Of a stretch of DNA of 64,000 nt, positions 36,210-63,525 are shown in pieces. The DNA is taken from contig OX597837.1 in the NCBI GenBank assembly GCA_951406725.2, forward strand, positions 21,018,001 to 21,082,000. Direction: 5' to 3'. A model generated the notes under the pieces. It made no database searches. It had not been told where the DNA came from and was given only the letters and a program-made list of their open reading frames with translations. A program made the position numbers and the translations under genes. The stretch's first letter is position 1; every line of letters starts with the position of its first letter. Source of the DNA: Octopus vulgaris. Taxonomy: Eukaryota.

Positions 36210-36344
36210 TCATGACTTCTGAACTAAATGGTTGGGAGCATCAGCAAACATATACTTCAGCTTAAATGCCTCAGCCAATAACTCGCCAATTTCTTCGTTC
36301 TGCCAGTGGTGAGTGGGAAGGTTTTGGAGAAACATCAGAATACC
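36210..36344 (-). CDS. TBC1D22: TBC1D22 terminal coding exon (GILMFLQNLPTHHWQNEEIGELLAEAFKLKYMFADAPNHLVQKS*)
   Basis: ttttag acceptor, TGA at 36212-36210; LQNLPT.HW...LLAEA..LKYMFADAPNH C-terminal signature. Confidence 0.96.
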   Translation of the reverse strand, partial: GILMFLQNLPTHHWQNEEIGELLAEAFKLKYMFADAPNHLVQKS

Positions 36345-37495: not shown

Positions 37496-37591
37496 CTGAA
37501 AATCTTTTTCTCGTTGAATATCAATGGAAAATCGTGTAAGAAATGCAGCACAGAGATAAAGGTGGAAATTTGCAAAACCATTTATTTCTGC
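37496..37591 (-). CDS. TBC1D22: TBC1D22 exon (AEINGFANFHLYLCAAFLTRFSIDIQREKDFQ)
   Basis: ttctag acceptor, gtttgt donor, 96 nt, phase 0/0; GF..FHLY.CAAFL. Confidence 0.95.
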
Positions 37592-39120: not shown

Positions 39121-39248
39121 CTGATAAGTGTCCCACAAACGAATGGTACAGCGCAAAGGAATTTCTCTCATCAGCAAGTTGTTCATCCATCGGAAGGCAA
39201 ATTGGAGAAATTCTACATTATGTTTTTCTAAATGTTTATATAATGGAA
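39121..39248 (-). CDS. TBC1D22: TBC1D22 exon (VPLYKHLEKHNVEFLQFAFRWMNNLLMREIPLRCTIRLWDTYQ)
   Basis: tttcag acceptor, gtaagc donor, 128 nt; QFAFRWMNNLLMRE signature. Confidence 0.97.
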
Positions 39249-41269: not shown

Positions 41270-41452
41270 CATCTATCCGTTTCACTAACTCTTTCAAAGC
41301 ATTCACTTTCATCTGAATACCAGGTTGAGCAAATGTGTAGTTGTCTTGGATACCATCCAGTAATCTCGTTGTACACCAGAAACTGTCGGCTTCGATGATG
41401 TTTAATGTGTCAATTGAGAGTTTGCTTAAGTCACAGTTCTCCACTTCTATAT
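41270..41452 (-). CDS. TBC1D22: TBC1D22 exon (DIEVENCDL...EADSFWCTTRLLDGIQDNYTFAQPGIQMKVNALKELVKRID)
   Basis: ttcag acceptor, gtaagt donor, 183 nt, phase 1/1; EADSFWC..LLDGIQDNYTFAQPGIQ signature. Confidence 0.97.
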
Positions 41453-44179: not shown

Positions 44180-44549
44180 TAGTTCCGAGTTCAGTCCCAC
44201 TGCGTGGCACCTTAGGCAAGTGTCTTCTACTATAGCCTCGGGCCGATCAAAGCCTTGTGAGTGGATCTGGTAGACGGAAACTGAAAGAAGCCCATCCTAT
44301 ACATGTATATATATGTATGTATGTATGTGTGTGTATATGTTTCTATGTCTGTGTTTGAGCCCCCAAACATCGTTTGACAACCGATGCTGGTGTGTTTATG
44401 TCCCCGTAACTTAGCAGTTTGGCAAAAGAGACCAATAGAATAAGTACTAGGCTTACAAAGAATAAGTCCTGGGGTCATTTTGTTCGACTAAAGACGGTGC
44501 TCCAGCATGGCCACAGTTAAATGACTGAAACAAGTAAAAGAGTAAAGAG
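44180..44549 (+). mobile_element. OR2-like SINE, 5'-truncated, ending about 10 nt from a TBC1D22 donor site
   Basis: gttcagtcccactgcgtggcacc...atgactgaaacaagtaaaagag. Confidence 0.85.
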
Positions 44550-44559
44550 TAATACATAC

Positions 44560-44680
44560 CATTGCTAATGTACTCAGAAAGATAGACAACAAAAAACGGC
44601 GTCACAAGATCATTAATTCCTTGTACATAACCACTGGCTGGATGGCGGATAGCCCATATATACAGGATTCTTTCAAATAT
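44560..44680 (-). CDS. TBC1D22: TBC1D22 glutamine-finger exon (IFERILYIWAIRHPASGYVQGINDLVTPFFVVYLSEYISN)
   Basis: ttttag acceptor, gtatgt donor, 121 nt; YxQ motif (GYVQGIND). Confidence 0.97.
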
Positions 44681-46130
44681 CTAAAAGAATGAAGAAAATA
44701 AAAAAAAAATTTTAGCATGTTTAAAAAAATAACCAAAATAATAATTTTCCATATAGACACAAAGACATCAATTTTGAAGGGAAGTGGGTAAGTCACTACT
44801 GAGAATCCCAGTACATGACTGGTATTTCATTTTATCAATCTTGGAGGCAAAGTTGACCATGGCAGAATTTGAATTTAAAACAAAGTCCAAGAATGTATTT
44901 TTTTTGATACTCTTCTGATTCTGCCAATTCATTGCCTTAATAATAACGAGGTTGTTTGCCACAAGGGAAAATGATGAAAGGGACAATACAAAAACAGGCA
45001 TAAAGTTTACATAAAACATAAGAATACATGGTAAATGGCATTAAAAAAGATGAAGAAACTGCAATCCTCCAAATACAGGAGGACATCTAGGATCAATCGA
45101 GAAATCACATCATTAAACATTTTGCCAAACGCTAAGAACAATTGCCCTCTCCACTTGCTCTGCTCCAATTTACAGGCATGGTCTGATCCACTCCACTACC
45201 CTCATCCACCTTTCAATAAATATTAGCAGTCTACACCTCCCTCTCCATCGTCACCATTTTCAAGTGAAACTTTAAAAATATCAATGATGAATAGAGATTT
45301 TTTTTTTTCAACCAATCAAAAATATTCTTTGGGGTTGGATAACTTGCTAGAAAATGTAACCAAATCTGCAAATCACACTATCACCATCTTAAAAAAAAGT
45401 GAAGGATACACTAGATTATTTAACCCTAAAAAATACAAGAGAGTCACTAAAGAAATACCTTTGATCTTAGTTCTTCTAAATTGGCATTGGTCCTGGAGCT
45501 AAACTATAACTAATTGGTGGAGGAGAATGAATCTTTCTACCAACTCCAAGGATCTTTGCATCTTAGTTCTGACTCTCCATTTTTTTAGAGCTTACAAGTT
45601 AAACTAAAAGAAAAGACAAGTCTTCACACAAGACAGGATTACAATCTACCACTAAATAATACTGGCCATAACTTCACCCCTCACACTCGGCAACATAATA
45701 AGGATAATACTCAATTTTGTATGTATGTGTCAATTAGACCATCATTACCCCCATTTTAACATTCATTTTTGCATGCTGGCACAGGTCAGACAAATTTCAC
45801 TGCAACAGAGTTTCTGCTGCTGAATGCTCTTCAGGTCAGCTCTCACCCGTTTGCAAGCAAGTTAATACTTCCTCTCCCACCAAGTCCTTTCAATCCAAAC
45901 AGCTCAATGGCCAGACAAGCTTTCAGGAAAACTGCAAACAAATGACACCATCTTTGTATGAGCAGTAACTGTTCATACAATCAGTGCATTATGCCAACAC
46001 ACACACACACACTGGGGACATTTCAGTTTCTATCTTAGATGAAGAACAACCACTGTTAGCTGCAGGAGTTTCAAACAGACCAGTTACTGAGTCACTGCAG
46101 TTCTTAAAGTGAAAGCGACAAGGGAGTGTT

Positions 46131-46162
<32 letters not shown>

Positions 46163-46320
46163 CAGCAAAGTTTTATCAGTGAACAGGTCACAGTTTCAAA
46201 GCAACAAAAATATTTTGACACAAATTAAATTTAAATGTTGAAGTGAATTTAAAGTTTTATGTTTTTTTATGTGTGTGAGAGTTCTTAAATGGCTTATAAA
46301 CATCTTCCATGCTACAATTG

Positions 46321-46361
<41 letters not shown>

Positions 46362-48094
46362 CTAGCAGGGAGATGAGTCACTGCTATCTCCAGCAGTCAA
46401 GCATCCATCGTTGATGAAACCAAAGAAGGCCAAAATCATGTGATCTGGTGGTCTCAGCGCTGGGGGTGGCAAGGATTAATCTCCCCTCTAGTGACATAAA
46501 CAAGAGTGCATCTTACACCAAAAGCCAATATGTGAGTTTCTCTCATGGTATCTACCCGCAGTATAGTTAGTTCTAACAGAACATACATATCTAAGTGGGG
46601 ATAAAAATTACCTCTCGCTAAAGTGATAATTATAATGATGTCCCTGCACTACAGGCTGCAGCTTCCTGGGTCAAGCATTCATGCCCCAGTTACACATACG
46701 TGCAACCAACTTTGCTGCATGAAGTCATCTACTGCCACCTGCTTCTGCATCAACCCTTCAATGCTCAACTCCGCACAATGGTCAAAATACTTCATTTTAT
46801 CTTGCTGGTATGTCAGAGCCAACTTCAAACTGCTAATGTACAATATCACACGTGCACATGCATTCTATGAGCTGCAGTTAGTTTATTCAGAGAAAGATGG
46901 AATCTCTTTGCTGCATGTAGGGGTAAGGGCTAACAGAATATTTTCAAATGCATTCCTATTTTAACTATTATGTTTTTTGGGACACCGATTTCCATTGCTG
47001 AACATACATATTTACATGATGGGCTTCTTCAAAGTTTCAATCAAATTTCTATTCATGATGCATTTGGTTAGCCTAATGCTACAACAAAGAACAGTAGCTC
47101 AAGGAGCCATGCAGCATAAATCAACTCTAGAACCCAATGGTTGCAAAACAAAACTTCTCAATCATAGGACCATACCTGCAATATATTTTCATGCATTCAG
47201 ACATTATGCTTTTAGGCTTCAAAGTTAGTGGCAAGTTTCTAGACTAATTTAAAACAAAGGAAGTTAGTAAAAATATATACATATTTATATGTAACTCCAT
47301 GATGCATTTCGGCTTGACCAAGATTAAGGTTAGTTTAATCGCAGGATGGACACCCACCTACCCACCCCACCTCCACAAAACAAGGATGCTCAAACCATGC
47401 AGTTATTTCAACCAAATAAACATGCATCCACATTAGGCTTCACAACTGTCTAAAAAGAACAAAAAAATTTCCAACAAGATGCAAGACTCAGTCTCCAACC
47501 ATTTCCTTTCCAACAATCATAATCATTGGTTTCTTGTTTTACCACAAAGACTATTTCGTCTAATTCTTTTATATTCGTTAAGCCTTTTCAGGCAAAACTG
47601 TTCTTTATAATATGACGCTATTTTCCTGTTTTAAAATTATTTAAATTAAAACTTCCCACTGAAATTTCATGTTAATTTATGATCCAAACAATGACAAAGT
47701 TATTTTACCAAATTCTTCATCATGTTTTCAAAATTAATTGAAAGAAAAACAATGCATTTCAACAGAAATATGACAATAAAAAGATTAAACAGACAAGAAT
47801 TCAAAATGATGCTTTTGTTACCTATTTACCAAAGTACAAAATGGCAGCTAAGTCCCTAAGCGCTAAATAGTTGTGATTAACGAATCTGGTAAGGCTTTAA
47901 CTCAGAAACATTATGAAACTGGAAACCACGGATTGTTTCATCTTGATCACACTCTTCCTACTATTCTTACAAAGAAACAAAGTCTTTCATTTATTGTGTA
48001 TGGACATAATTGACTGTCCCTCAGTATATTACAGGTATCTAAGAGAAAAATGAAAGGCGGATAAGAAATGAGTTGGCATCAAGATTTAATAATA

Positions 48095-49745
48095 ATGGTT
48101 ACAAATTTTGGCACAAGGCCAGCAATTTTCAGGGAGTGGGTAAGTTGATTACATCAACCCCAGTGTTCAACTGGTACTTATTTTACCGACCTCAAAAGGA
48201 TGAAAGGTAAAGTTGATCATGGCCACATTTGAACTCAGAATGTTCAGGGTCAGAAGAAATGCAGCTAAGAATTTTTTTTCCCCGGTATGCTAACGATTCT
48301 GCCAGCTCGTTGCCTTAATAATAATAAGAATAATCCTTTCTGCTAAAGGCATAAGGCTTGAAATTTTGGAGGAGGGGACTAGTCGATTACATTGACCCTC
48401 ACTGGTGCCTAATTTATCGACCCTGAAAGGATGAAAGGCAAAGTCGACCTAGTAATTTGAACTCAGAACATGAAGACAGACAAAATGCTGCTAAGCATGG
48501 TAGCATTTCTGCCAGCTCACTGCCAGAAGAATAATAATACCTGAAACAGAGCCAGGGCATGTTTCTGATTGGTAAATCATCTTTCCAGGATACAATATTG
48601 GTTTCATCACTGGTGAAAGAGGTGGAGTCAGGCAGAGAGATGCAATCTGGTACTTAAGATTAGCCACTAGGACTTAGCTCTCGTGTTTTACACTGATTAA
48701 AGGCTTATGAGTTGTACTGTATTAATGGAGATCCTAAAATCTCTCGGAGCCAATCCTTTCAGCTGTGAGGAAAGGTGATACAATTCACCATTGTAGTCAG
48801 AGGATGCAAGGTATGATTGGCAACCATTTTCTCATTGGCCACAACTGTCACTGTCACCACCACCACCACCACCACCACAGGATCAGGAAAGAAGCACTGA
48901 AAAGCTACACCCTTCTATCTAACCTATAAGATGGACATCTCTATCCCACCACTGTCCTCCAATTAAGGTAAAAGGAAATAGCGACCCACTTTTAATTAAC
49001 ACATGAAAATAGGGAAAATAAAACAAATCAGCCTAATTATCATACTTTATGAGACATGGATTTTCTTCTCTTTTATTTTTTGCTAACATATTTGATGACA
49101 ATAAAAAAAAAGTTTACCTCAAACCAAAATATATAAATATGAATAGTAATAGGATTTCAAAGCTTCCTTTGTGTAACACAATACAATGAAGAATTCTTTA
49201 ACTTACCTGCCAGAAGTTATTGTGAAAAAAGATGATTAAACAAACAAAACTGGTTGACATATTAGATAAATATTTTGGCACAAAGCCAGTAATTTCAAGG
49301 GCAGATGTGGAAGTCAATTACATCAAACTTGCCAGTGCTCAATTGGTGCTTATTTTATCAAACCCACAAGGATGAAAGGCAAAGTCGACCTCAGTGCAAT
49401 TTGAACTCAGGACAAAATGCTGCTAAGCATTTTGTCCAGCATGCTAATGATTCTGCCAGCTCACTGCCTTAGATTGGATAAATATATTGAATGATCTTAT
49501 GAAATAGGTTAAAAGCCAAATAACATTGGTTTCAAATTTTGGTAAAAGGTCAGCAATTCCAGGGAAGGGATTAAGTTGATTACATCAACCCCAGTGCTTG
49601 ACTGGTAGTTGTTTAATTAAACTTGCAAGGATGAAAGGCAAAGTTGACTTTGGTGGAATTTGAACTCAAAATGTAAAGACAGACAAAATGCTGCTAAGCA
49701 TTTTGCCTGGTGTTTTAATGATTCTGCCAGCTCACCACCTTAGAT
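48095..49745 (-). mobile_element. cluster of older MetaSINE-type copies
   Basis: four reverse copies with ggcacaaggcc...ggatgaaaggcaaagt...tctgccagctc. Confidence 0.75.
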
Positions 49746-51901
49746 TAGATAAATATGTTGATAGAATGAATGAAATAGATTAGATAAAAGCCAAGTAATA
49801 TTGAGACAGAAGGAGTCAAGGAAAGAGAGAGAAAAGAAATAGTGCAAAGAGTATAAAAAACAAAACTAATTGTAACTCTGACCCTGATGCCATTCTAAAG
49901 GAATCGATTTTGTAATCTAAGCCAATAAGAGGTTCATATATTATCTCTATTCAAAAAAGGGCAACTTTTCAAAATGTTAGACTCCTTCACTACTCACTAG
50001 AAGTCAACTTGTTGAATTCTTCTACAAACTCCCCCATCACTCTTAAACAGCAAACATCATCGATTGTTGCTTCATTACAGAACACTGGATATCATCAACT
50101 GATGTGTATTTGCAGAATGCAGGAGTTTCAAATGAATTTTATGCTCAATGCCAGATGCAAAGGAAAGTGAATATTTAACAGCACTTTTCAATGAGATTGT
50201 CAATTTTATTGTGCAAGAGACTAAAAATTTATCATCATCATTTATCATCCGTTTTCCATGCTGACATAGACTGGGGACTGGCAAGCCAGAAGGCTGCACC
50301 AGGCTCCAATCTGATCTGGTAAGGTTTCTGCAGCTGGATGCCCTTCCTAACGCCAACCACTCCAAGAGTGTAGTGGGTGCTTTTTACATGCCACCAGTAC
50401 AGGGGCCAGTCAGGTGGCACTGGCATTAACCACATTCAAGTGGTGCTTTTTTATGTGCCACTGGCACAGGAGCCAGTCGGGGAGGGACTGGCATCGACCA
50501 CATTTGGATGGTGCTTTTTACGTGCCACCAGCAGATTTTGGGGGTTTTTTTGCTTGCTTAGGGTTTTTTTTTGTTTGCCTACTTACACATTCATGCATTC
50601 CTTTTCTTCTGTTTAAAGGCTAAATACTGTCAGAAACAGAATAAAACATGGCAGTTGAACCAGTAAAGGAGCCTCTGCAGGGCCATTCAACAAGCTAGGA
50701 ATAGCAACTAAGTTTCTCTCAACTAGAACAATAGCTTTAAAAAGGACACATTGGACAATCTAATCATAGGAATAATAGCTGGAACAATAAGGATGGTCAT
50801 GGCTGGAATGCCTTCAAATGTTAATCAAAATAATTTCATTTCAGCCTAATTTAATTACTGGAAATAACTCTCAAAAATTCATCATCAATACAATTTACAT
50901 CAGTTTTTGCAGGCTTCAACTGGCTTTTGCAGAGGTTTGCTCTTACAGAACAAACATTCACTTTGTAGGCACTGAAGTCACTTTTGCCAGTGTTTCTAGC
51001 TAGACTGCTTTGACTGAGGACAAAACCAGAAACTCTTCCTATTATCCATGCCCAAGAAATATTTTTACCAGACTTTGTGGCCTGTAGTCATATAATCAAA
51101 AGACTGGCCTTCCTTTAGAGCCTTTTATAGACTCAGTTGCTTGTTCTTAACATTAAGCATTCAACCATGAAGCGAGAGTGACTCCCTATATTTAAACTAG
51201 GTTAGTCAAAGGATAAGTAATTTGTCAAGAGCCACAAGGTACTGCAAAATGAGATTTAACCATTTAACATTTAAACCAGCCATATCCAGTCCAAATCTTA
51301 TGGTCAAACCAACCAGATCTGGCCTCACACTTACTCTACAGTCACATCATCAAAATCTCAAAGCTAAGAAATAATGCAGGATTAATTCAAAACCATGTGA
51401 ATAAACAAACATTACATTTGACAGGGTAATCTGAATGATTAAACTTATGCTGATTATTATGGGGTTTTTTTTATTATAAAACTGTCTTTAAAAGAGATGA
51501 CGCAATCAGAAAATAAAGAACATTGATTTAAAAAAAAAATAAACAGCTAAATTTCTTTGATTATTTAAGATGTTAAGAGAAATAAAGAGATAATGAAAGG
51601 TTGGCTTTCCTTAACCTTTCCATCAGTTCTAGGGATAAATAATGATATATATTGGCAGCATGACAGAGTTGCTGGTTTTTCTTCTAAACAACTGTCTCCA
51701 TTGAATGAGTATATTAAAGAACAACCAAAAAAGAAACAGGTGGAAAGAAAGGGTGAGATAGACAGACAGAAACAGGTGAAAATTTTCTGGTCCGTTTGCA
51801 GAGCTGGATGTGAAGTCAAGTGAAAGAAACAGGTAAGAAAATATATTTAAAAAAAGATGAATAAGAGATGGCAGCTGTAAAGTTGACTAACTGATACTCA
51901 C

Positions 51902-51967
51902 TTCCTGCACGGCATTCTGCTGGAACAAGTGTGCAACAGAAGTCATTCGAGGGATATCTTTAAGAAT
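51902..51967 (-). CDS. TBC1D22: TBC1D22 arginine-finger exon, copy B (ILKDIPRMTSVAHLFQQNAVQE), putative mutually exclusive alternative
   Basis: tttttgcag acceptor, gtgagt donor, 66 nt, phase 0/0, no stop; colinear with copy A (I..DIPRM.....LFQ...VQE). Confidence 0.85.
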
Positions 51968-54005
51968 CTGCAAAAACAGGGAGCAGGGTGTTTTTGAAGA
52001 AGACAGTAATCTACTACTAACCATCAAAGAGCTACGGTGTTACACTCGTTGAGTAGGAGTGAAGTCAACATGGAAACGACAAACCAGACTAAAACTTACA
52101 AAATTAGAAAATATTTTGTTATTATTTATTTGGGAAAGAAAGGTTTGTTTGCTTGCTGTTTTTTTTTTAAATAATTTTTTTTAAGAATTTCTTTTTTTAC
52201 GAACATTTTAAAAAACAATTCATTCCTCATTTGTATATCAACATAGGTTAGATAAATCTAAAAATCCACACATCTGCACAAATTACAGTGGAAGCCTGCT
52301 CTTTGAAACGAGTAGCCACAGATAAAATTATAGAGCATGACATGGAATGATGTACAAGCTGAAGAAGTATCAGCGTATTGATTTATAACAATGTGTTTTT
52401 AAAAGTTTACATCAACAAATTTAAGGACCAATTATTAGTCTTGACGAATGATTAATTAATCATAAGCATATATAAATCACCAGTGCTAAACAGCTACATT
52501 CAATTTCCAGTATTATGCTAGCTGTAACAACATACATAAACTGTAAAATATTTACAGCTCTGTTAATCAATACCAAAAGATGGAAAGGTGTTACTAACAA
52601 TATCAGGGGTAACAGATAATTTTTTTAAAAACCAAAATCTGATTCTAAGTTTAGACAAAGCCCGTCTGGTTTCTCGAAAATGTTAACTTTTCTCATATGG
52701 CCTGAAAAAAAGACAAACACATGTTAGTTATTAAGAGAGAAGATAAAACAAAGCCCCAGCAATGAAAAACAAAAATTAAAACAACAGAAAAAGCCAACAA
52801 AATACACCCAAATATAAATGTTAAAATGTCAAAAGAAATTGCACAGCCACCTTGATTCAAATGTAGCATCTGAACTAGCAAGGGCAGGGTGCTAAGACAT
52901 CCATAGTGCAGCATGCTGGGTAGGGATCAAGGGGTACAGCAGAAAAATATTTAGCTAGTTAGACAGCAAAATGCAGCAACTTGTGTCTTTCCCTTCAACC
53001 AAATTCTACCAAAGTAACATCTTAACTGGGTTTTCATTTATACACAGTTTCATATCAACTTGAAAAAAAAAAATACACATTAAAATTAAAAGCTAAAATC
53101 AAACAGGAATTTAGTTGATCAAAATTAATGTTTTTATTATTTTACTTAAAATATTTTTGTAAGTGAATTTCCAGTGAATAGCTGTCACAACATCATCGTT
53201 TAACATCCATTTTCCATGCTGGCATGTGTTGGACAGTTTGACAGAAGCTGGCAGGCTAGAGCTGCACCAGGTCCCAGTTGTCCATTTTGGCATGGTTTCT
53301 ACAGCTGGATGGCCCTTCCTAACATCAATCACTTTACAGAGTGTGTTGGGTGCTTTATATGGCCCCAGCATGGGTGCTTTTTATGTGATGCCAGCATGTA
53401 ACACTTTAGTTAAAAATAAAAATGTTCTAAAACTATTTTCAGTATAGCTAATATGGTACAAAATGACTAAGAGATATATTAAGATATATTTTTTTTAAAA
53501 AGTGAGAAGGGCAACGTTCTTCCCTGTAGCTAAATTACTCCAGGAATTCTTTCTGAGTATATTCATAAATATCTACACCTATATTCACCTCAACATCATT
53601 CCATGAGATTAATTCCGAAATTGATTCAATATAGAAATAACAAACTTTTTTTAAAATTCTGTTGACTAGCTTTCCTCGATTTCAGCACAATGTATTTCTG
53701 TAGTGGGACGATTTAAAAGTCCGTTATCAGCATATTGGCATGGAACTAATTTTCTTTTGCCCTTGTTTATAAGTTGTTTATAATTTTAAACTTTAAAGGT
53801 ATTCTAATACGCTGCCACTTTTTGATGAAATTTTTTTCTGTAAAAAAACTTCATCCTATATTAGTAGTATATATAATACCGGAGTAAAGACATAAATGTG
53901 AAACAAGGTGGAAAAAAGGTGGAATTTTAACAAAACTGTCCGACGAATGGGAACGTGAAACTCCGAGTAACAGGTTTTGTTGAATTTCTGCTGCTTTGAA
54001 ATAAA

Positions 54006-54059
<54 letters not shown>

Positions 54060-54471
54060 AAGAGAGGAAGAAAAAAGTATGATAAACACACATGATGCAG
54101 TTTACCATACTTTTTCTAATATTTCCTCTGTATATCATAACTAATAATACCACTAAGTTCAGTAGCAACCATGTCGCATTTCTGGCAGTTGACTGGGGGC
54201 TGATAGTCTATGTGGAACCGTAAATACACATGCAGCTGTTGTACGTCTAACCTTGTGTGTGTGTAGCATAACAAAAAGCCCTGAAACTTCAATATTTCAG
54301 TAACAAAGAAACTGGAAATTCAAGCTTGCTGTGTAAATATTTAGCTGCTTTTTTATTAGACTTTTACTAAACTATTGAACTTGCTTGTCTACAGACCTGG
54401 TGAAAATATGATTGAAAGGCCCCAAATTGCTGCATTTTGTTGAACTGGCTCTTTGTTGGGGGCATACTTAC

Positions 54472-54537
54472 TTCCTGAACTACCTTCAGTTGAAACAGAG
54501 GGACTAAAGGGTTCATTCGGGGAATGTCTATGTGAAT
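54472..54537 (-). CDS. TBC1D22: TBC1D22 arginine-finger exon, copy A (IHIDIPRMNPLVPLFQLKVVQE)
   Basis: ttttag acceptor, gtaagt donor, 66 nt, phase 0/0; IxxDxxR motif in the canonical IHIDIPR form. Confidence 0.95.
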
Positions 54538-54699
54538 CTAAAATCAGGAACATTGAAGAGAAAGAAAACAAAACAAAAACAAAATAAAGACTTTACTTCC
54601 AAAGATGCAGCACATCAAAAATGGTGCAAATATAGACAGATGTAAAAGTATTTTAAATTTCAACATAAAATAAAACTTACATACTTAACATATACAAGC

Positions 54700-54766
<67 letters not shown>

Positions 54767-54979
54767 TCTTAACTGATTGGAAGTGTTATCATGTACATTG
54801 TTTTGTCTTGGTATAAAAGATGGGCTACACCAAATATTCTGCTCAATACCACAGATTTACTTGTCACTTGTTTGACCTTAACCAGCTGACAATGTCCCTT
54901 AGTGGCTGATGATATGTGCATCTCTGATCATGAGCAGAAGTAGTGGGGGAGCATCATAGCCATGTGTTGAAAGGAATTC

Positions 54980-56566
54980 TTATTTCATTGACACCAAAAG
55001 GATGAAACGCAGATTCAACCTTGGTTGATTTGAATCTAGAACATGGTTGAAATGCCGCTAAGCATTTTTGCCCAGCATGCAAATAATTCTACTAGCATAC
55101 TGCCTTAATAATAATAATAATCTTTTCTACTAAAGATACAAGGCCTGAATTTTGGGGTGAGGGGACTAGTCGATTACATCAACCCCAGTGCATAACTGGT
55201 ACTTATTTCATCGACCCCAAAAGGAAGAAAGGCAAATTTGACCTCAGCGGAATTTGAACTAACATAGCAATGGACGAAATATCGCTAAGCATTTTGCCCA
55301 GCCTGCTAACAATTCTGCCAGCTCACAACCTTAATAATAATAATTCTTTCTATTATAGACACAAGGCCCGAAATTTTGTGGGAAGAAGCTAGTTTATTTC
55401 AATGGACTCAATGCTCAACAGGTACTTATTCTATCAACCTCAAAAGGATGAAAATTAAAGTCAATCTCAGAGGAATTTGAACTCAGAATGTAAAGAGTCA
55501 AGAGAAATGCTACAAAGCATTTGGTCTGGTGTGAGCATGATTCTGCCAGCTCACTGTTCCTAATTCAGGTACAAGGTCTACAATTTTGGAAGGGAAGGAT
55601 TCTGTCAGCTCACCGCCTCAGTAGTAATAATCCTTTCTACTAAAAGCACAAGGCCTGATAGTTAAAGGGAAGGGACACTACACCAACCCTGAAATGATGA
55701 AAGGCAAAGCAGACTTTGGTGGAATTTGGACTAAGAACATAGACACAGAAGAAATGCCTCTAAAGCTTTATAATAATATGTTTCCTCTTGGTGTAAATGA
55801 TGGGCTATAGCAAACACTTTGCTCAATACCACAGATTTATTTGTCAGCTGTTTCACCTTAAATAGTTGAGCATGTTTCTTAGTGGCTAACAAAATGTGCA
55901 TCTCTGATCACAAACAGGTGGGGTCATTATAGCCATGTGTTGATAGGCATTGAGGTTTGAATAATTCACCTCTAGAAACATGGGTGTATCATTCATCACC
56001 TTAAACAACTCTTATTCAGGGACCTTTTGAATGGGATAGGCTACTCAACCTGAAGAAAATTCGAACTGGGCCCCACCTGCAAAGCCATGCACTGTTTATC
56101 TCAATATGTGATCACTATGTTGCATGCATGTATGGCTGTGATGCATGTACTTGATGTATCCTTAATCAGACAGGTAGTCATGATGGGTATATTAGGCTTC
56201 ATATGTTCGTATCTCAGTGTCACTTTGATGGAATGCACTGCTCTCTCACCCAATAACCCTTTCTACCAATTGGTGGAATTTGAACTTAAAACATAAGGGG
56301 AGACGAAAAACTGTTCAGCATTTTGCCTTCAGTGCTACCAATTCTGCCAACTTGCTGCCTTAATAATAATCCTTTCTACTATAGGCACAAGACCTGAAAT
56401 TTAGTGGGAGGGAACTAGTTGATTACATCGACCCCAGTATTTCACTGGTACTTAATTTATCAACCCCAAAAGACAAAGCTGACCTTGGTGCAATTTGAAC
56501 ATAAGGGCAGATGAAATGCCACTAAGCATTTTGCCTTCTGTGCTAAGGATTCTGCCAGCTTGCTGC

Positions 56567-56600
<34 letters not shown>

Positions 56601-58050
56601 GGGAATGCATACAATGAGCTTCTCTGACCCAGGTGTATGGAAAACACTCAGCGAGAAAATCAAGAAAAGTTTAAGAAAGAAGAAAAATAAAGAAAATAAT
56701 AATAATAATAATAATGATAATAATAATAATAATGATAATAATAATAATAATAATAAACAACAGCAAAAATAATAATGGAAATAATGCTAAAAACATCATA
56801 GTGACAACAATTAAAAAAACAAGACTCATTGAAAGCAAATACAAACAGCTACAACATCCACAACAATCTTGTAAAGCAGTGTAATTAACAATATCAATTA
56901 ATTAAAATATTTCTCCAAATAAAACTGACATTTACACATTGTCATTATACTATTTCACAACTAGAATACTGTAAATACTAGTACAGAATTCCATACTAAT
57001 AGCATAGTAAATTTTGGTGATAACTAAAAGACAGTGGTATCCTAAGTAAGCTAGGAGAAACACCAGATTTCTATAAAAAAAAATTCTGGAGTTCTGCAAG
57101 ACAAAATGTCTTTTCATCATCATCATCATCGTTTAACATCCGTTCTCCATGCTAGCATGGGTTGGACGGTTCGACTGGGGATCTGGGAAGCCAGGAGGCT
57201 GCACCAGGCTCCGGTCTTATCTGGCAATGTTTCTACAGCTGGATGCCATTCCTAACGCCAACCACTCCGTGAGTGTAGTAGGTGCTTTTTACGTGCCACC
57301 TGCACTGGTGCCAGGCGAGGCTGGCATCAGCCATGGTCGGATTGGTGCATTTTACGTGCCACCTGCACGGAAGCCAGTCGAGGCGGCACTGGCTTCGGCC
57401 ACGATTCGGATGCAAGACAAAAGTGTCTTTTATTAAAATTTAATCACTATTTTCAAAATAAGTAATAATGGTTTTAAATTCTGGCACAAGGCCAGCAATG
57501 TTGGGGGTGGGGTTAAGTCAATTACATCAACCCCAGCGTTCATCTGATAGTTATTTTCTCAACCTCAAAAGGATAAATGGCAAAGTTGATATTGGTGAAA
57601 TTTGCTCAAAATAATAATCCTTTCTGCTATAGGCACAAGGCCTGAAATTTGTGGGGAGGGGGACTAACTGATTACATTGATCCCTGTGTTTCACTGGTAC
57701 TTTTTTTATTGACCTCAAAAGGATGAAAGACAAAGTTGACCCCAGCAGAATTTGAACTCAGAACGTAAGGATAGACAAAATGTTAAACATTTTGCTCAGC
57801 ATGCTAATGATTCTGCCAACTTGCTGCCTTAATAATAATCCTTTCTACTATAGGCACAATGCCTGAAATTTGGGGGAGGGGACTAGTGGATTACTTGAAA
57901 ACCAGTATTTCACTGGTACTTAATTTATCAACCCTGAAAGGATGAAAGGCAAAGTCAACCTCAGTGGAATTTGAACTCAAAATGTAAAGTCATGAAATAC
58001 TGCTAAACTTTCTGTCTGGTATACTAACAATTCTGCCAGCTACCCACTTT
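54980..58050 (-). mobile_element. dense array of older MetaSINE-type copies separated by (AAT)n, with other repeats interleaved
   Basis: many reverse copies starting cctttctactataggcacaaggcctgaaattt. Confidence 0.75.
57115..57412 (-). mobile_element. RTE-tail repeat with internal acgtgccacc subrepeats
   Basis: (CAT)n followed by gtttaacatccgttctccatgctagcatgggttggacgg. Confidence 0.75.
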
Positions 58051-58486
58051 AATAATAATAATGACATACATACATACATATACATATAAATTCTATATCT
58101 GAAACAGTTTTGTTGCATTTAATGTCTTACCAAAATTATGGTGGGAAGCAGTCTATAAAATTTATGGTGTGGGTTCTGCAATTTCTGGAAAATCATGTAA
58201 AATTTTCCTCAATGAAATAACTCAGTTAACCATTGTTCTATTACTCTCTATCCATCTTCACCCACTGCTCTTGAGAGGGTAGAGTCTTCAGGCACTTCCT
58301 CCTTAAGATCCTATCAGGAGTAACCACCATTACACTCTCTGGCTGGAATCCCAAAGATGACCAACTGTGACTATGGACGTTGACCAGCCATTTCAATCTT
58401 GGTCTACCCTCAGGTCTCTTGCTGCTTAGCTAAGTTTGAAGAATCCATTTTGGCAATTCTTTCTTGTGACATTCTAATCACATATC

Positions 58487-58965
58487 TTATTTCTTTATTG
58501 TCCACAAGGGGCCACACACAGAGGGGACAAACAAGAACAGACAAATGGATTAAGTCGATTATATTGCCCCCAGTGTGTAACTGGTACTTATTTAAAGGTG
58601 GTGAGCTGGCAGAACCATTAGCACACCGGGCAAAATGCTTAGCGGTTTTTCGTCTGCCGTTTCATTGTGAGTTCAAATTCCGCTGAGGTCGACTTTGCTT
58701 TTCATCCTTTCGGGGTTGATAAATTAAGCACCAGTTACGCACTGGGGTCGATGTAATCGACTTAATACCTATATCTGTCCTTGTTTGTCTCCTCTATGTT
58801 TAGCCCCTTATGGGTAATAAAGAAATAGGTACTTATTTAATCGACCCCGAAAGGATGAAAGGCAAAGTCAACCTCAGCGGAATTTGAACTCAAAACATAG
58901 CGGCAGACAAAATACTGCTAAGCATTTCGCCCGGTGTGTTAAAGTTTCTGCCAGCTCGCCACCTT
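58487..58965. mobile_element. nested MetaSINE-type copies in opposite orientation
   Basis: plus copy 58596-58827 inside a minus copy; TSD ggtacttatttaa at 58583-58595 and 58828-58840. Confidence 0.88.
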
Positions 58966-59126
58966 AATCTAATCACATATCTGTAGTGCTAGAGATATGA
59001 TTATGACTGTTCAATACAGAGAAGCCACTATTTTACACACATTTTTCACTAAAACATATAACTATATAATTTTCAAGCTTTCCTTTCTTTGTGTGTATGG
59101 AGTTTATTTTGTAAACTGAAACTGAC

Positions 59127-59255
59127 CTGTCGAAATGTATCTTGATGTTCAACTTGATGTCGTGTCCCATAATACTGTTCAACAAAACTGAAATATTCCT
59201 TCCGCTTTCGTTCTAAAGTGGGTTGCCTCCGATCACAGTCTACAGGAAGATAACC
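59127..59255 (-). CDS. TBC1D22: TBC1D22 exon (GYLPVDCDRRQPTLERKRKEYFSFVEQYYGTRHQVEHQDTFRQ)
   Basis: ttcag acceptor, gtcagt donor, 129 nt, phase 0/0; GYLP...RKR.EY..F..QYY. Confidence 0.95.
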
Positions 59256-60236
59256 CTGAAGAAAAAAAAAGAAAATCATGCATATATGATCAAGAGGAAG
59301 GGCAGTTTGCATGTGTCTATGTGGGACATAATGTCACCATTACTGAGGTGGTATCGAGGCAAAAAACACACATATCCATCCACAGACACACACGAGCTTC
59401 TTTACAGTTTTCATCGATACTGAGGTTCTTTATCCACTAGAAGTATAAAGAAGACAGTTAGAAATTGACAATTTCTGATGAAATTGCTAGAAACAGTGTA
59501 GACATAAATATTGTAAATATGCACTGTAAGTTGGAAAATTATCTTATTAACAACAACTCTTCTCAAATATTAAGACATTTTTATTTCAACTTTAGTTGAA
59601 GATGGTTTCAACATTGAGGATTCAGTCGTTTAATCAACTTAATTCTGCCCCTGAACTAACATATAAGTGACTGGGTATTTTACAGACACATGTACTCTTA
59701 ACACTTAACCATTTAATCCATCCATATCTGGCCCAAATATTCTATTTGTTTTATGTACATATATATTTATATATTATTTGTTTTATGTTAAAACTGACCA
59801 GATCCACCTCTCACATGATTGGGAAGCAAGCCACACATCATCACCATCATCACTGAGCAACCATTTTCCATGCTAGCATGAGTAAGACAGTTTGACTGGA
59901 ACTGGTCAGCTGAAGAGCTGCACCGGGCTCCAGTCTGTTTTGACTTGGTTTCTATAGCTGGATGCTCTCCCTAATGCCAGCCACTCCATAGAGTGTACTG
60001 AGTGCCTTTTATGTGTCACCAGCATGGGTACCTTTCATGTGTCACCGGCACAGTTGTCTTTTATGTGTCACCAGCACGGGTACCTTTCATGTGTCACTGG
60101 CACTGACCCTGACTACAATTTCACTTAGCTTGATGTATCTTCTCAAGCAGAGCAACTCACCAAAAGTCTCAGTCACTTGTCATCACCTCATATTAAAAAT
60201 GCTTTATAAAGAAAAAGAATGCAAAGTTTCACTTAC

Positions 60237-60307
60237 AGATAAAATTTTCCATGCTGTGGGTCTCACTGATTTTGGGATGCCAGACCAACTGAGTTTACGT
60301 AATTTTT
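60237..60307 (-). CDS. TBC1D22: TBC1D22 exon (EKLRKLSWSGIPKSVRPTAWKILS), start of TBC domain
   Basis: tttag acceptor, gtaagt donor, 71 nt; LSWSGIP..R..W motif. Confidence 0.95.
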
Positions 60308-62186: not shown

Positions 62187-62387
62187 CTAAACCTGCATTT
62201 GATGATGTTAGTGATGTTAGTAAAGTGTGAAATTTTTCTAATTTAGCAGATTCCCGATCTGGCACTGATGGCTGACCAAACCGCAAAGGCGTAATTCTAG
62301 GAGGCTGCCAGTGACTGTTGAGACGCACACCTACACCCGGTCCAGCACCTAAAGAAATTGCTGACGGAATTGCAGTCATGTGACATC
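62187..62387 (-). CDS. TBC1D22: TBC1D22 exon (GCHMTAIP...DRESAKLEKFHTLLTSLTSSNAGL)
   Basis: cccacag acceptor, gtgag donor, 201 nt, phase 1/1; RE..KLEKF..LL matches the pre-TBC helix. Confidence 0.88.
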
Positions 62388-63280: not shown

Positions 63281-63525
63281 CTGATGGGGATTTGACTGGA
63301 GATCCCTGTGAGGTACCGTTAAGAGCTTGGAACTGTTTACTGTGATTGTCAAGTACAGCACGTGCAGTCGACTGGACATCCTTTAAGGACATTTGAACAG
63401 TGGCCATCAATATTAGATCATCATCGCCATCGTCCCAAGCATCTGATGTCTCATTTTCAAAGTCCCGGAAGGAGTCCTTCGTCTTGTTTTTTAGCTTGTC
63501 ATCTTTCTTTGGTGTTCCTGGGTTA
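63281..63525 (-). CDS. TBC1D22: TBC1D22-family Rab-GAP, internal N-terminal exon (NPGTPKKDDKLKNKTKDSFRDFENETSDAWDDGDDDLILMATVQ...SPVKSPS)
   Basis: AG/GT-bounded 245-nt open exon; the SFxxFExxTSDAWD motif is characteristic of the TBC1D22A/B N-terminus; its phase joins the next exon; the start exon lies beyond the window end. Confidence 0.9.

Follow-up and report, generated by a model that had tools for sequence, protein, structure and literature searches.

Can one gene supply a Rab GTPase-activating protein (GAP) with two alternative versions of its catalytic arginine-finger segment and, if so, how distinct and how old are the two versions? The question is raised by 64,000 nucleotides of the Octopus vulgaris genome (GenBank assembly GCA_951406725.2, contig OX597837.1, positions 21,018,001 to 21,082,000 of the forward strand), referred to below as the window, i.e., the whole stretch of DNA that was analyzed. 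The window contains, on its minus strand, a gene for TBC1D22, a regulator of membrane traffic, running from position 63525 down to a stop codon at 36210, in which a preliminary description had noticed two tandem exons of 66 nt (here termed A and B) that would swap the arginine-finger segment and would probably be mutually exclusive. The choice of Rabs by TBC GAPs is poorly understood. We conclude with high confidence that A and B form a conserved, mostly exclusive exon pair in TBC1D22, and the best reading of the data is that the pair is an old splice switch which would retune the catalytic helix and loop that face the Rab.

The models of Octopus vulgaris and Octopus sinensis match the window exons nearly letter for letter when aligned by tblastn. 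The exons are listed below in their order along the gene, with the evidence for each in parentheses.

63281..63525, minus strand: exon of the N-terminal region of TBC1D22, with more 5' exons past the window end (tblastn of octopus models, splice sites read)
62187..62387, minus strand: coding exon that runs into the TBC domain (tblastn of octopus models, splice sites)
60237..60307, minus strand: coding exon, EKLRKLSWSGIP... (tblastn of octopus models, splice sites)
59127..59255, minus strand: exon U, constitutive, upstream, 129 nt, phase 0, ending in ...QDTFRQ (splice sites; RNA-type contigs X12 record 8 and X7 record 25)
54472..54537, minus strand: exon A, ancestral-type arginine-finger exon, IHIDIPRMNPLVPLFQLKVVQE (splice sites; A-only models P0124, P0008 and P0128; TBC1D22B/Gyp1 type)
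51902..51967, minus strand: exon B, derived arginine-finger exon, ILKDIPRMTSVAHLFQQNAVQE (splice sites; B-only models P0126, P0121 and P0009; 15 mollusc genera)
44560..44680, minus strand: exon D, constitutive, downstream, IFERIL...YVQG with the glutamine finger (splice sites, RNA-type contigs)
41270..41452, minus strand: coding exon, TBC domain (tblastn of octopus models, splice sites)
39121..39248, minus strand: coding exon, TBC domain (tblastn of octopus models, splice sites)
37496..37591, minus strand: coding exon, TBC domain (tblastn of octopus models, splice sites)
36210..36344, minus strand: final coding exon, to the stop codon (tblastn of octopus models, splice sites)

Exons A and B are each 66 nt long, in phase 0/0, and have canonical AG/GT sites, A being bounded by TTTTAG and GTAAGT and B by TTGCAG and GTGAGT. 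The introns from U to A, from A to B and from B to D measure 4,589, 2,504 and 7,221 nt, respectively. The two exons are identical at 43 of 66 nucleotides and 12 of 22 amino acids, and different codons are used for 7 of the 12 common residues, one more than the six that the preliminary description had listed. As a control for chance resemblance, both strands of the window yielded 94 stop-free segments consisting of 66 nt between AG and GT, among which only A and B start with I..D.xR. Exon D has a single match in its own genome (four candidates scored), which indicates one gene rather than two paralogs. The pair consists of adjacent homologous exons of equal length and phase in a single gene copy, the pattern that defines a duplicated exon; the anatomy given in the preliminary description (coordinates, length, phase, splice sites and translations) and its claim of tandem duplication both stand.

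The solved structures closest to the gene product are human TBC1D22B (6D0S), human TBC1D22A (2QFZ) and yeast Gyp1. The IxxDxxR motif is kept in both exons, and its arginine lies 35 residues from the glutamine of YVQG in exon D with either exon. Since motif and spacing equal those of the catalytic pairs R274/Q309 in human TBC1D22B (PMC12631847) and R343/Q378 in Gyp1 (PMC3676764, PMC5902221), the earlier assignment of the segment as the arginine finger is upheld. The TBC domain (PF00566) scores 153.8 bits in the A form and 154.6 bits in the B form, with a cut-off of 25.2. In the AlphaFold prediction for the B form, the exon occupies residues 241-262, with predicted local distance difference test (pLDDT) values of 71-78, and takes in the last part of helix 232-250, then a short helix, then the first part of helix 258-274; exon positions 2 and 3 fall on the catalytic helix. 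The domain in this model, a prediction rather than a solved structure, fits 2QFZ with a root mean square deviation of 1.8 A and a target template modeling (TM) score of 0.95, and 2G77 with 2.4 A; B is thus predicted to fold as a normal TBC domain. The model of a form containing both exons has low confidence, and in the region of the second arginine (residues 248-272) its pLDDT falls below 50. Judged by its sequence, exon A is of the ancestral type, because it is like Gyp1, TBC1D22B and the single exon of nematode, arthropod, priapulid, hemichordate and cnidarian models.

Are A and B used as alternatives? The RNA sample consists of four contig sets placed on positions 44500-59300, of which two are informative; they hold contigs, not reads, and their label as RNA is presumed. 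Sets X2 and X6 gave no exon records among the matches listed. In set X12, the contig on U stops 4 nt past U and the contig on D starts 6 nt before D, and a 4-nt prefix and a 6-nt suffix are exactly what A and B have in common; the expected overhangs are 2 and 0 for a form that skips both exons and 0 and 0 for retained introns. An assembly graph splits at such points when both exons join both neighbors, so the break points imply the four either/or junctions U-A, U-B, A-D and B-D. They are also compatible with an A-to-B junction. In set X7, one contig is continuous from U to D with exactly 66 nt in between, which means that a single exon, A or B not being distinguished, is dominant in that set.

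The protein collections give the same main pattern. We examined 88 named mollusc models, including repeated database versions of the same gene, of which two are partial. Among the 86 complete models, 25 contain A only, 40 contain B only, 16 contain both and 5 contain neither, so that exactly one exon is present in 65 of 86. The both-exon models come from Octopus sinensis, cuttlefish, Biomphalaria, Gigantopelta, oysters, Mytilus and Pomacea, and the no-exon models, in which the arginine finger is gone, from Octopus, Dreissena, Aplysia, Mercenaria and Pomacea. A further 33 transcript-assembly proteins (three also among the named models) were hand-picked, partly through B queries, which biases the sample towards B; they comprise 29 with B, 3 with A and 1 fragment, so exactly one exon is found in 32 of 33 and both or neither in none. 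By this indirect evidence, each exon is joined singly to both flanks in RNA, as seen in the X12 breaks, the 66 nt of X7 and the one-exon assembly proteins. The mutual exclusivity proposed in the preliminary description appears to hold as the main pattern but not as a strict one: exclusion would be the rule, but a leaky one.

Conservation was assessed with one A/B pair of models from each of 15 mollusc genera covering cephalopods, gastropods and bivalves. In 14 of the 15, the A-only and B-only models are of equal length and identical outside the exon, so the expectation of two proteins that differ in this segment alone is borne out by annotated models. The 15th genus is the cuttlefish, where the named B-bearing model holds both exons and B-only assemblies occur in the same cluster. 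Across the 15 genera, A has a mean pairwise identity of 0.84, B one of 0.81 and the 22 residues directly upstream one of 0.70, and A and B within one species are identical at 0.54 of positions. The purifying selection that the preliminary description proposed for both copies is therefore visible at the protein level, and B is intact, neither absent nor disrupted, in all 15 genera. At columns 2, 3, 9, 10, 12 and 13, A and B have no residue in common in any of the 15 genera; in the octopus the changes from A to B at these diagnostic columns are H2L, I3K, N9T, P10S, V12A and P13H, which flank the arginine on both sides, four of the six lying downstream of it in the loop. The catalytic D and R are present in 15 of 15 B exons and the first eight residues of B are nearly invariant. 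All 159 stored 22-aa exons other than B carry proline 10, as do 106 of the 123 distant representatives of the family that were parsed; none of the 15 B exons does. These comparisons argue strongly that selection has kept B as a distinct form. As a separate observation, a divergent B exon starting ILKDLQRMP... is found in the unnamed molluscan assemblies P0175 and P0335-P0339; like the nemertean second exon, it lacks the proline before the arginine.

How old is the pair? As far as gene models can tell, it is far older than the cephalopods, and such a pair turns up again in nemerteans, an annelid and lampreys. In two nemerteans there is a second exon of 19 residues starting IQKDLCRM, and in the both-exon model of Tubulanus it follows A, the same order as in molluscs. 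Its scores are 20-27 against mollusc B and 7-21 against A, only a slight preference for B. A microexon-like insert of 6-7 residues offers another comparison. In bivalve models (P0037, P0136, P0138, P0177, P0178, P0097, P0342 and P0345) it reads GLGLGA/T, QQLGLGT or QHLGLGT and immediately precedes the arginine-finger exon, which puts it midway along the catalytic helix; in scallops and oysters it lies upstream of A. All 10 mollusc models with the insert contain B. The octopus introns, scanned for splice sites and for the peptide, did not yield the bivalve microexon. Lineus (P0242) has a 6-residue insert, SSGLDT, which resembles that of scallops and oysters and stands ahead of its second exon. 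This suggests that the nemertean and mollusc second exons have one origin, but B is absent from the chiton models. In the annelid Owenia the second exon has 20 residues, starts IEKDINRM and precedes A; it is likely a separate duplication. Mollusc B and the nemertean and Owenia second exons all have lysine at position 3 and none has proline 10; the nemertean and Owenia exons are 2-3 residues short, with an arginine-to-glutamine spacing of 32-33. No second exon was seen in the models, which can miss exons, of chitons (2), Ptychodera (3), horseshoe crabs (4), Schistocerca (3), filarial nematodes (11), vestimentiferans (3), Capitella, Paralvinella and Priapulus (1 each).

In vertebrates the evidence comes from gene models rather than genomic DNA. 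The X1 and X2 models of the lampreys Petromyzon and Lampetra are identical save for an exon of 22 or 21 residues. The 22-aa form is identical to human TBC1D22B at 21 of 22 residues, and the 21-aa form aligns without gaps to human TBC1D22A (11 of 21 by a count made by eye), with which it has a one-residue deletion in common. The 21-aa exon scores 37-41 against A and 26-31 against mollusc B and, being nearer to A, probably arose independently of mollusc B. The human constructs in PDB show one exon each, 22 aa in TBC1D22B and 21 aa in TBC1D22A. In a tree of the TBC domain with the exon removed (304 columns, poorly matching blocks blanked, many fragmentary rows), the lampreys fall outside the jawed-vertebrate clade (91.9/95), within which a TBC1D22B clade (98/99) and a clade of 21-residue TBC1D22A (96/99) are recovered. 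A lamprey-like pair was likely shared out later between the two human TBC1D22 genes: the vertebrate ancestor would have spliced both exons, TBC1D22B would have kept the 22-aa copy, and TBC1D22A lineages would have sorted the copies later. The lampreys provide the outgroup that splices both exons. The human constructs show one exon per paralog, but fish-like sequences with the body signatures of TBC1D22A use the 22-aa exon, and human TBC1D22A has a mutually exclusive exon (ME) event whose exons are unnamed; this event, 'TBC1D22A ME' (SpliceSeq 62725), has the largest coefficient in an ME risk model for acute myeloid leukemia (PMC12886300). An exon-skip event is listed in another cancer paper (PMC8590485), and either event might bear on this exon. 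Beside these, one fish-like TBC1D22A model (P0360) has a predicted intron-derived stretch before its 22-aa exon that contains SQASVT, the end of the lamprey 21-aa exon; the stretch is without the catalytic D and R and may be a decayed second copy or a chance match. Taking all phyla together, the same exon would have been duplicated at least twice and probably three times, i.e., in molluscs with nemerteans, in Owenia and in vertebrates.

What could the exchange of one exon for the other do? Transcripts that mostly take A or B would give rise to two active Rab-GAPs, unlike in Rab preference or rate. We infer a changed fit to the Rab because the fixed differences flank the catalytic arginine, where they could alter the presentation of the finger or the fitting Rab surface; the changed residues presumably contact the Rab, and with six diagnostic positions that face or position it, the choice of exon would set substrate or speed. 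Genes for Rabs were located in the octopus. We consider it rather probable that exon choice does change Rab preference or rate. More tentatively, and with the balance of probability against it, the arginine-finger exon may be a modular Rab selector that has been repeatedly duplicated and splice-switched, the human paralogs being its fixed outcome and the segment deciding that RAB1B is bound and inactivated by TBC1D22B and not by TBC1D22A. Several points weigh against these proposals. Of the 86 complete mollusc models 16 contain both exons and 5 contain neither, and the RNA support comes from contigs in two of four sets with a presumed label. TBC GAPs are described as promiscuous (PMC12631847), so a change of 10 residues may leave specificity unshifted, and the difference between the human paralogs towards RAB1B need not stem from the exon, given how many of their other positions are unlike. 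Finally, the fish-like 22-aa sequences join the 21-aa clade weakly in the exon-free tree (50/72, and 0/62 for one row); the same grouping had 91 in an earlier quick tree, in which the upstream exon was also masked in 7 of 33 rows.

In a rival view, splicing could set the amount of GAP activity rather than its target, with B acting on the same Rabs as a weaker GAP or mainly as a Rab binder and with the both-exon and no-exon forms as further off states. The loss in B of the near-invariant proline after the arginine, the no-exon models of five genera without an arginine finger, the poorly predicted segment of the both-exon form and the shortened spacing in the nemertean and Owenia exons all fit this view; the retention of D and R in every B exon does not, nor does the prevalence of B in the molluscan transcript-assembly proteins (29 of 33, in a sample biased towards B), which would suit the main working enzyme. 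We regard it as an unlikely explanation, though the first to be considered after an effect on Rab preference or rate. A good deal less likely is that the changed residues serve self-association, a scaffold partner or a regulator rather than the Rab: the dimer interface of TBC1D17 adjoins the IxxDxxR and YxQ motifs (PMC13090580) and four of the six diagnostic positions lie in the loop downstream of the arginine, but positions 2 and 3 are on the catalytic helix itself.

Still less probable is a redundancy in which A and B work alike and each is retained for use in some cells. All catalytic residues are indeed present in both, and the Pfam scores are the same; interchangeable copies, however, would be expected to drift or disappear, and here six class-specific residues are fixed in three mollusc classes and the beginning of B is near-constant. 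At the far end of the scale, the proposal that A and B are normally included together, or that B is a pseudo-exon or an annotation artefact, could appeal to the both-exon models in seven mollusc groups. It is very improbable and largely refuted, since the X12 breaks need all four either/or junctions, X7 has a single 66-nt exon, and exactly one exon is present in most complete models and in every assembly protein except the fragment; the constitutive inclusion of both exons, which the preliminary description had named as fatal to its proposal, is by the same evidence largely ruled out.

A hard mechanism that would enforce exclusion was not found: the A-B intron is 2,504 nt long and both exons are in frame. 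A search for competing RNA pairing among the introns that adjoin exons U, A, B and D, restricted to exact matches, found no complementary stretch longer than 12 nt. Two candidate elements lie near exon B.

52702..52850, minus strand: AG-free U-rich zone of 149 nt in the A-B intron, with TAACTAAC, a pyrimidine run and a CAG ending at 52702 (candidate)
51732..51834, minus strand: ACCTGTTTCT in three copies shortly after exon B, within 170 nt (at 51834, 51777 and 51741; motif scan)

The zone from 52850 to 52702 is the second longest AG-free zone among the 1,581 AG sites of the gene and leads to a strong acceptor-like site, from which a phase 0 reading gives Ala-Ile-stop. It is possibly a cryptic acceptor, or belongs to a poison or terminal exon; no junction to it appears among the matches listed in the RNA-type contig table. 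The three copies of ACCTGTTTCT are the only occurrences in the window and form a candidate splicing element. An apparent excess downstream of B of the NOVA-type motif YCAY was rejected, as 8 copies were counted and 28% of 2,000 shuffles reach 8.

Two observations concern other loci. In the window, two open frames at 6029-5052 on the minus strand look like a mariner-type transposase. Elsewhere (L009 and L010, G000:C11:5110299-5115177), two Rho-type C-terminal coding exons of nearly the same sequence are found 4.5 kb from each other, with a single N-terminal exon listed ahead of them; they could be alternative last exons of a RhoA-like gene that arose by duplication, or a tandem gene pair.

The nearest known relatives are TBC1D22A/B and yeast Gyp1p (PF00566; PDB 2QFZ, 6D0S, 1FKM and 2G77), which have the same family, fold, dual-finger motifs and spacing of 35; the octopus gene differs in encoding two versions of the arginine-finger segment within one gene. 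In the literature searched, outside of which most subscription papers fall, we did not find an exon pair of this kind described for any TBC GAP. The A/B isoforms are already present as automatic RefSeq and GenBank models, for which we found no published account; what is new here, as read from such models, is the second copy of the same exon in two nemerteans, Owenia and lampreys. TBC1D22 does not appear among the human homologous exclusive exons in the searched tables of PMC5740500 (TBC1D19 only) and PMC8373072 (the CALU control is present, no TBC1D), in the searched part of the PMC4494069 tables, in one small file of PMC9741552 or in the text of PMC4417111. The A/B pairs are natural pairs of GAPs, about 10 residues apart around the catalytic arginine and held apart since the mollusc classes split, which makes them ready-made tests of the residues behind Rab preference or rate. 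Through the lamprey pair, the exon swap is linked to the contrast between human TBC1D22B, a RAB1B GAP that binds RAB1B-GTPgammaS and is linked to breast cancer prognosis, and TBC1D22A, whose binding is negligible (PMC12631847). If true, the repeated duplication in separate phyla would also offer a clear example of convergence in splicing where catalysis takes place.

Two known systems come close. Exons 6a and 6e of coq-2 are homologous mutually exclusive exons in helminths, annelids and molluscs (PMC7434440) and, like the TBC1D22 pair, consist of an ancestral and a derived exon of equal length, swapped near the active site, with a patchy distribution across phyla and maybe repeated origin. The coq-2 exons have 134 nt, so that double inclusion breaks the frame, whereas those of TBC1D22 have 66 nt and are in frame, which is why both-exon and no-exon forms occur; moreover, TBC1D22 acts on a protein substrate, a Rab. 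The duplicated exon of oyster AOX is another tandem-exon case (PMC5589949). In vertebrates, the likeness is to CALU in teleosts, where splice isoforms separated after gene duplication (PMC4494069): for TBC1D22, a lamprey outgroup splices two homologous exons in one gene in its models, and later paralogs would use one each. The table of that study, in the part searched, started from human genes that still have both exons and does not include TBC1D22, and in contrast to CALU the separation in TBC1D22 looks staggered, fish-like TBC1D22A being still on the 22-aa exon. Both homologous exclusive exons at an enzyme core and splice isoform separation are therefore known in kind, and the TBC1D22 pair adds an unusual spread.

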